Virus record (IMG/VR): IMGVR_UViG_2778261425_000003
Strand: one strand, 5' to 3'
DNA: 47,028 nucleotides
Origin: a virus
Lineage: Duplodnaviria; Heunggongvirae; Uroviricota; Caudoviricetes
How positions within the stretch are numbered: the stretch's first letter is position 1; every line of letters begins with the position of its first letter. The notes beneath the pieces were generated by a model. It had not been told where the DNA came from. It saw only the letters and a program-made list of their open reading frames with translations, and did no database searches. The translations under genes were made by a program, and so were the position numbers. Of this stretch, positions 5,712-6,485 are shown piece after piece.

Positions 5712-6485
5712 ATGGATATTACTGAGTTTCCTTCTGGAGTAATTGAACACCTTGGCTGGTATGTATACCGATTGATTGATCCGAGGGACGGAAGCACCTT
5801 CTATGTAGGGAAAGGCAAAGGTAACCGCGTATTTGCCCATATGCGCGGTGAAGTGGCAGCGACTGATGATGACGAGTTACTGAGCAACAAGCTAAAGCAA
5901 ATTAGAGAAATAAGGTTAGCAGGACTTGAGGTTATCCATGTCATCCATCGACACGGAATGACTGATGAAAAGACGGCGTATGAAGTTGAAGCAGCACTTA
6001 TTGATGCCTACCCTGGGTTAACGAATATCATGAATGGTGCTGGCAGCAATGAATTCGGCGCCGCGCATGTCAAAGAGTTGATAGCAACATATCAACCCGA
6101 AACCATAACATTTCATCATAAAGCATTAATGATTTCCGTTAACAGAAGTGCAAAGGATTCAGAGCTTTATGATGCGGTTCGATTTAGCTGGCGCATTAAT
6201 GTCTCTCGCGCCAGCCAAGCAGAAGTCATTCTTGCTACTGTAAGGGGAATCGTTCGAGGGGTTTTCATTGCTGATAAATGGCTCAAATCAACACGTGAAA
6301 ATTTCCCTACGATGAAATACTGGGACGAGGATCCTGACTTTGAGGCAACACAAAGTTCTCGCTATGGTTTTGAAGGTCGAGAAGCCCCACCTGAAATAGC
6401 AAATCTTTATCTTGGAAAAAAAATACCAGATGAATTAAGAAAAAAAGGAGCTATGTCCCCGGTCCGTTACTCACCTAATTTTTGA
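5712..6485 (+). CDS. GIY-YIG-like nuclease-domain protein, function unknown
   Basis: N-terminal [33 protein letters not shown] resembles a GIY-YIG motif followed by R and E residues; about 200-aa uncharacterised C-terminus; longest ORF starts at 5661. Confidence 0.55.

Follow-up and report, generated by a model that had tools for sequence, protein, structure and literature searches.

A nuclease gene beside pin

The sequence analysed here (the window, 47,028 nucleotides, IMG/VR virus record IMGVR_UViG_2778261425_000003, Caudoviricetes) carries an open reading frame (ORF) at positions 5712-6485 whose product is a GIY-YIG nuclease and which lies beside the pin invertase gene at the tail-fibre end of a prophage. 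An initial annotation made from the letters alone had proposed it as a stand-alone restriction-like or abortive-infection nuclease. The gene and the parts of its product that are discussed below are as follows.

5712-6485, + strand: nuclease ORF, with ATG at 5712 and a stop codon ending at 6485, 257 amino acids
5536-5711, + strand: upstream non-coding region, the presumed site of the native promoter
5712-6017, + strand: GIY-YIG nuclease domain, with N105 just past it in the linker
5865-5876, + strand: acidic autoinhibitory loop D52-D53-D54-E55, four consecutive acidic residues
6048-6482, + strand: C-terminal modification-sensing domain, residues 113-257, predicted to bind 5-hydroxymethylcytosine (5hmC)

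An alternative, longer reading frame with a TTG start runs from 5661; crystallised homologues begin at MDITEF. The G+C content of the gene is 43.4% (35.7% at third codon positions), compared with 54.4% for the tail genes at 9335-20000 and 49.5% for the whole window, and it was rightly described from the start as lower than that of the tail genes.

The product of 5712-6485 is almost certainly PD-T4-3, also named CMoRE, a type IV restriction endonuclease that is encoded by a single gene and acts specifically on DNA carrying 5hmC or glucosyl-5hmC. This system has already been published, characterised and crystallised, and the finding is not new. A profile search of the full protein, suggested in the initial annotation, gives an end-to-end match to the PADLOC model for PD-T4-3 (PDLC04031, E 2.4e-140, residues 1-256 on model positions 1-255 of 256), and PHROG 5356 is also matched (E 2e-143). 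Among sequences in the PDB, the protein matches 9u75_A/9U8D, the “GIY-YIG domain-containing protein” of E. coli O157:H7 (E 3.7e-172), and 9U7U/9U7Z from avian pathogenic E. coli (APEC) O1 (E 1.1e-150). The window protein is 98.4% identical to the crystallised O157:H7 allele, the sole differences being T51A, E55D, Q169K and N197H (4 of 257 residues), and 85.2% identical to the other class of E. coli allele, that of APEC O1 type, which is found in strain UPEC129. It is 100% identical to RefSeq WP_000355484.1, present in strains SOI121 and O157:H7 ECP19-2498. One further candidate for an identical protein, P0001, was set aside: it is listed as 100% identical, yet it carries A247S and represents a 90% cluster. 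No observation contradicts the PD-T4-3 assignment.

Domain architecture and key residues

The protein consists of a nuclease domain of about 100 residues, a 10-residue linker and a C-terminal part of about 145 residues. The initial annotation had recognised a GIY-YIG-like motif with its Arg and Glu at the N-terminus, and this is borne out by a match to Pfam PF22945 (LEM-3-like GIY-YIG; 54.2 bits against a cut-off of 27, residues 28-110). With a profile score above the curated threshold and a fold similar to solved GIY-YIG domains, the domain belongs to the GIY-YIG superfamily. The remainder had been given as about 200 residues of unrecognised sequence; it is indeed unrecognised, but is shorter (about 145 residues, 113-257).

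The motif reads Y17-V-Y19 ... Y31-VGKGKGN-R39-VFA-H43 ... E93 ... N105. In an alignment of 75 homologues from many phyla, Y17, Y19, Y31, R39, H43, E93, N105 and Y127 are invariant. CMoRE conserves the Arg and Glu that serve catalysis in the GIY-YIG fold (PMC12923530); that text gives no residue numbers, and R39 and E93 are assigned as the catalytic pair from the alignment. In CMoRE the GIY-YIG domain lies at the N-terminus and includes a third tyrosine, for a motif written “GIYxY-YIG” (Y17, Y19 and Y31; PMC12923530), and the window protein has all three. The interface residues R80, V92 and L96 are also present, as is Y127, the published 5hmC contact, in the C-terminal domain. The loop reads ATDDDELL in the window, AADDDDLL in the crystallised O157:H7 protein and AVDDDELL in the UPEC129 protein of APEC O1 type. 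Thus every residue that is either named in the published CMoRE work or invariant in the 75-sequence alignment is found in the window protein. With O157:H7 CMoRE it shares family, length, architecture and prophage context, and its catalytic, loop, interface and ligand-contact residues match, the four substitutions being conservative or at the surface.

Published activity and predicted mechanism

PD-T4-3 was first found in E. coli ECOR68 by functional selection in the E. coli pangenome (Vassallo et al. 2022, PMC9519451). It was renamed CMoRE by Liu et al. (Nat Commun 2026, PMC12923530), whose study covers biochemistry, phage assays, structures and mutants and is the source for the following. With CMoRE present, T2, T4 and T6 plate about five orders of magnitude less efficiently, and the defence is direct: carrier cells grow normally at a multiplicity of infection (MOI) above 1, as do those with the ECOR68 original, and sequencing shows the host genome to be untouched. 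DNA with 5hmC or glucosyl-5hmC is degraded and DNA with C or 5-methylcytosine (5mC) is spared; T4(hmC) remains sensitive, and T4(C) escapes. The cut site is CN11/N9G, leaving 2 nt 3' overhangs, and the nuclease requires Mg2+ or Mn2+. CMoRE is a tetramer (a dimer of dimers), and its assembly is needed for function. Exchange of the four acidic loop residues for alanine (4A) yields an enzyme that cuts unmodified DNA and is toxic. In the structures 5hm-dCTP is bound on the C-terminal domain, where a main-chain oxygen, that of Y127, contacts the hydroxyl. The O157:H7 allele is strongly active from its native promoter.

Two independent studies are in accord with these results. A Capnocytophaga homologue, 48% identical, cleaves T4 DNA when it is modified and spares it when it is not; Mu DNA, too, is cleaved when the concentration of the enzyme is high (PMC12366544). 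In the clinical strain NILS69, deletion of the native gene raises the plating of Tevenvirinae; one phage escaped the native-level system, not the plasmid-borne one (bioRxiv 10.1101/2024.12.20.629700).

The steps proposed for the window protein are taken from the published, 98.4% identical O157:H7 protein. The C-terminal domain would bind 5hmC or glucosyl-5hmC and ignore unmodified cytosine and 5mC. A dimer would read a pair of modified sites with a spacing of about 21 bp (CN11/N9G). Between these the N-terminal GIY-YIG domain, which needs Mg2+ or Mn2+, would cut to leave 2 nt 3' overhangs. The acidic four-residue loop is predicted to cover the active site and exclude unmodified host DNA, so that no methyltransferase or immunity partner would be required; none of the genes next to the nuclease gene in the window is a methyltransferase. 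Incoming T-even phage DNA would then be destroyed directly, with a drop in plating of about 10^5-fold, and the cell would survive.

Alternative explanations

Several observations weigh against an intact and active PD-T4-3 at this locus. The classic GIY-YIG model PF01541 scores the protein below threshold (13.9 against 22.6), and NCBIfam holds no model that matches it. Two of the four differences from the crystallised allele, T51A and E55D, fall within or next to the autoinhibitory loop; the charge is kept. The APEC O1 allele is only weakly active from its native promoter (PMC12923530). A promoter and terminator scan of 5400-6700 finds no consensus sigma-70 promoter on the + strand upstream of the ORF, and a strong Shine-Dalgarno sequence is absent ahead of the ATG at 5712. 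The same scan calls no terminator in 5400-6700. By eye there is a weak candidate promoter (TTGTGA at 5651-5656, a 17 nt spacer and TAATAT at 5674-5679, 8 of 12 matches), which scores under the scan threshold.

The last of these points bear on the possibility that the gene is an intact passenger that is nearly silent, being weakly expressed or not at all and contributing little to immunity in its native context. The upstream signals favour this explanation, as do the weak defence given by the APEC O1 allele from its own promoter and the NILS69 phage that evaded only the native-level system. On the other hand, deletion of the native gene in NILS69 did increase phage plating, the O157:H7 allele is strongly active from a native upstream region that is 94.5% identical to that of the window, and the ORF is kept at 95% or higher DNA identity in 843 records of complete E. 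coli genomes. We consider near-silence unlikely, and infer that the window allele is probably expressed and active.

An abortive-infection or otherwise toxic nuclease, in which infection would set off indiscriminate breakdown of DNA and so kill the cell, is very improbable. The 4A mutant, which cuts unmodified DNA and is toxic, does imply that the enzyme is latently toxic, and prophage-end cargo often consists of abortive-infection systems, lit in e14 being an example. Yet infected carriers grow normally and, for the O157:H7 protein, keep an intact genome, and the wild-type loop DDDE is unbroken in the window allele. Of the two functions offered by the initial annotation, the stand-alone restriction-like nuclease is thus upheld by the PD-T4-3 match and the abortive one is not, given the published growth at MOI above 1. 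There is next to no probability that the gene is a selfish homing endonuclease of the I-TevI type, spreading itself rather than defending its host. A test for homing endonucleases gave a weak N-terminal PHROG match (E 0.0021, residues 17-149) and did not place the protein among them; the whole protein belongs instead to a family whose cleavage is known to depend on modification and to be relaxed in sequence. Its C-terminal domain lacks any Pfam or PDB sequence match to known domains and has only a weak resemblance of fold, to modified-base readers; there is no intron, intein or target-site duplication around the gene, which in E. coli occupies a fixed prophage slot. PD-T4-3 remains the identity that we adopt below.

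The prophage and its attachment sites

The prophage is about 42 kb long and is bounded by exact 48 nt direct repeats of the 3' part of thrW. Its features outside the nuclease gene are the following.

44407-45570, + strand: integrase ORF, adjoining thrW
45585-45660, - strand: tRNA-Thr(cgt) gene thrW (ARAGORN, Rfam)
3605-3652, no strand: distal thrW attachment repeat and end of the prophage, a 48 nt exact copy of 45583-45630
3873-4100, + strand: IS3-type integrase-core fragment, between the attachment (att) repeat and the nuclease gene
4142-4894, - strand: AraC-family regulator (Pfam HTH_AraC and HTH_18), 34.8% G+C
5192-5535, - strand: serU attachment-junction relic, 97.1% identical over 344 bp to the K-12 serU locus
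6543-7133, - strand: pin serine invertase (Pfam Resolvase, E 1.8e-51, and HTH_7), convergent with the nuclease gene
7159-9047, no strand: Pin-controlled invertible tail-fibre segment, with 20 nt inverted repeats at 7159-7178 and 9028-9047

Inside the att repeats, the order beyond the tail fibres is pin, PD-T4-3, serU fragment, AraC-family gene and IS3-type fragment. The nuclease gene therefore lies between the serU relic and pin, at the tail-fibre end and within the thrW repeats, which agrees with the initial reading of accessory cargo at a prophage end, flanked by an att-site relic (the 344 bp serU piece) and a Pin invertase (the Resolvase-family gene). In SOI121 the equivalent of pin is annotated by PGAP as a 555 nt pinE matching 6543-7097, and pin is 93.5% identical in DNA to pinE of NCM3722, a K-12 derivative. 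A homologue of pin is present in 2,823 E. coli genomes. The invertible segment encloses two alternative tail-fibre C-termini and two tfa (tail-fibre assembly) genes; its inverted repeats are 95% complementary (AAACGTTGGTTTGGGAGAAG).

The relic consists of the 3' 66 nt of tRNA-Ser serU (5470-5535, - strand) and 278 bp of the chromosomal yodB-serU spacer. Sequence matching it is annotated as tRNA-Ser in other genomes. Over the whole window thrW is all that ARAGORN calls and the sole Rfam match, with no tRNA at the relic, so the serU piece is a fragment and not a gene. That this fragment might be the prophage's own att site was ruled out, the att repeats being derived from thrW and the fragment being a foreign serU junction. 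It is a former serU attR junction with its host flank, transplanted, which suggests that the tail-end module was once part of a serU-integrated prophage. The relic is likewise found in O157:H7.

The late region (8829-27226) is 97.7% identical to the SOI121 prophage, which is annotated with a Mu-type baseplate, sheath and tube, an HK97-type head and a P27-family small terminase. By contrast, early and regulatory DNA (27270-43563) does not align to SOI121, and the prophage is thus a mosaic. A paoD/yagP left flank as in SOI121 was ruled out: positions 1-3588 fail to align and represent the end of a CP4-6-like island, with genes for the ykfI toxin, antirestriction, JAB-domain and YafY lipoprotein proteins in window positions 1-3600. 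Two elements therefore stand in tandem at thrW, the thrW-bounded prophage and, beyond its distal repeat, the CP4-6-like island. O157:H7 has the same arrangement of AraC-family gene, serU fragment, PD-T4-3 and pin, set in a degraded prophage that is followed by a P4-like element; the window prophage is seemingly complete, whereas its counterpart in O157:H7 RV06 is degraded. The AraC-family gene and the IS3-type fragment flank PD-T4-3 in O157:H7 too, and other genes take their place in strain IrN. The AraC-family protein (4142-4894) has no PADLOC match.

Distribution of the family

A homologue is present in 958 of 5,426 complete E. coli genomes, with 843 records at 95% or higher DNA identity and 119 at 60-80%. 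Across bacteria there are 6,562 clusters at E < 1e-5, and full-length identity of 55-60% is kept in Planctomycetota, Acidobacteriota, Actinomycetota, Chloroflexota, Cyanobacteria and others. For a gene of a defence system such conservation is unusually high; it points to strong constraint, to recent horizontal spread or to a combination of the two.

We surveyed the neighbours of homologues at 69 of the 80 loci fetched, with 131 flanking ORFs. There is no conserved partner among these 131 immediate neighbours, and no family recurs more than five times; Phage_integrase accounts for five of them, and type I restriction-modification, SoFic, reverse transcriptase and Cas1 proteins are scattered among the rest. 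The absence of a conserved neighbour is consistent with a single-gene system. In other species, only four of 80 loci with a homologue encode any protein that the window prophage also has, so the pin and tail-fibre context belongs to E. coli and its relatives and not to the whole family.

A megablast search of sequenced phages (INPHARED) with the nuclease gene gives no match. With tblastn, full-length homologues of 38-45% identity are seen in virulent jumbo phages, among them Serratia phages Moabite and 2050HW, Pectobacterium phage vB_ParM-25, Pseudomonas phage OBP and Klebsiella phage N1M2, where they are annotated as homing or GIY-YIG endonucleases. These homologues could act in phage-phage competition.

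Nucleases between pin and the attachment site

The initial annotation had likened the locus to e14, in which mcrA lies next to pin, and the comparison is sound. In K-12 MG1655 the e14 order is ymfQ-stfP-tfaP-tfaE-stfE'-pinE-mcrA-attR, and the products of both cargo genes are modification-dependent nucleases. McrA (EcoKMcrA) is, like PD-T4-3, a type IV enzyme acting on modified cytosine, and in a related prophage its gene is found in the equivalent place at the tail-fibre end, with pin on one side and the attachment site on the other. McrA acts on 5mC and 5hmC and is not known to act on glucosylated hmC. Unlike PD-T4-3, it combines an HNH nuclease with a different N-terminal reader; mcrA points the same way as pinE, and the PD-T4-3 gene converges on pin.

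The slot of a related prophage, located at ssrA in UPEC129, holds GmrSD (PADLOC mREase_IV, 1415 bits), beside the other PD-T4-3 allele and a REase_DpnII-MboI-domain protein. GmrSD (DUF262/DUF1524) targets the glucosyl-hmC DNA of T-even phages. It neighbours PD-T4-3 in that slot, but its fold is unrelated and the protein is far larger. Other contents of the slot are an OLD/AriA-like ATPase, three proteins without a family match, PD-T4-3 with other neighbours, and DinI with an integrase only. In the P2-like prophages sampled the invertase is internal and there is no cargo slot, which confines the idea to prophages of the e14/SfV type. In these the cargo between pin and the att site is varied and consists mostly of nucleases, type IV enzymes (McrA, GmrSD and PD-T4-3) being met repeatedly, as seen in a small sample of about 10 loci that is illustrative and not statistical.

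A further parallel in activity is the PvuRts1I/AbaSI family of restriction enzymes that depend on 5hmC. Where two modified cytosines are arranged symmetrically, these enzymes cut between them at a fixed distance, approximately N11-13/N9-10, with short 3' overhangs as the result, which is essentially the cleavage geometry of CMoRE (CN11/N9G). Like CMoRE, they recognise 5hmC and glucosyl-5hmC, and not C or 5mC (PMC12923530).

The C-terminal sensor domain

Liu et al. report that CMoRE's C-terminal domain has no sequence or structure homologue (PMC12923530). In our searches it has no Pfam match at E up to 10, its profile retrieves only its own family among PDB sequences, and it shows no sequence-profile similarity to the EVE, ASCH, YTH or SRA families. 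Comparison of folds gives the following scores.

THYN1 (EVE) bound to 5mC DNA, 5j3e: 5.6
PH1033, 1wmm: 5.4
Mmi1 (YTH), 6fpx and 5o8m: 5.4
VcaM4I (EVE-HNH), 6yex: 5.4
YTHDC1 (YTH), 6zd9: 5.3
ZmASCH, 5guq: 5.3
McrB N-terminal domain, 6n0s: 4.9

We take PH1033 (1wmm) to be an EVE domain. The link to PUA-like readers is weak, and is not significant by Foldseek. VcaM4I and other fusions of a PUA reader to a nuclease have no detectable sequence similarity to PD-T4-3, and the domain order of EVE-HNH proteins is the opposite, the nuclease of PD-T4-3 being N-terminal.

A profile of the sensor domain finds 2,024 representative proteins, including some with non-canonical architectures. In P0251 the sensor is N-terminal and is followed by an AAA_5 (AAA+) domain (Pfam E 9.4e-16), with no GIY-YIG domain; a stretch reading MNTADRS...RRRF in this protein is presumably the McrB family signature. 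Five proteins of 630-700 residues (P0210, P0212, P0239, P0248 and P0264) have the sensor near the N-terminus and no GIY-YIG domain, and proteins of 400-600 residues have it at the C-terminus. P0141 and P0163 are likewise listed among the sensor proteins without a GIY-YIG domain. The remaining parts of the 400-700 residue proteins have no Pfam or PADLOC match, except for weak matches to ankyrin repeats and PDC-M72A in P0132. This modular occurrence fits a reader domain. We give roughly even chances to the joint proposal that the sensor is a very divergent PUA-like reader (EVE/YTH/ASCH) and a portable module, and that the pin-to-att stretch is a dedicated hotspot for the exchange of type IV enzymes.

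Significance

PD-T4-3/CMoRE has been published and crystallised and is represented in both PADLOC and DefenseFinder, and its identification here thus opens no new question. The case is of value for calibration: a reader of raw sequence picked out a GIY-YIG defence nuclease, the logic of its position as cargo and the right class of phage, that with modified DNA. The possible PUA-like fold, the modularity of the sensor, the pin-to-att slot and the serU junction are minor leads. If the sensor is indeed PUA-like, CMoRE would take its place in the type IV scheme of a PUA reader plus a nuclease, and this placement would help in engineering 5hmC-specific tools. The pin-to-att slot, which holds several uncharacterised genes, could be mined for new modification-dependent nucleases.
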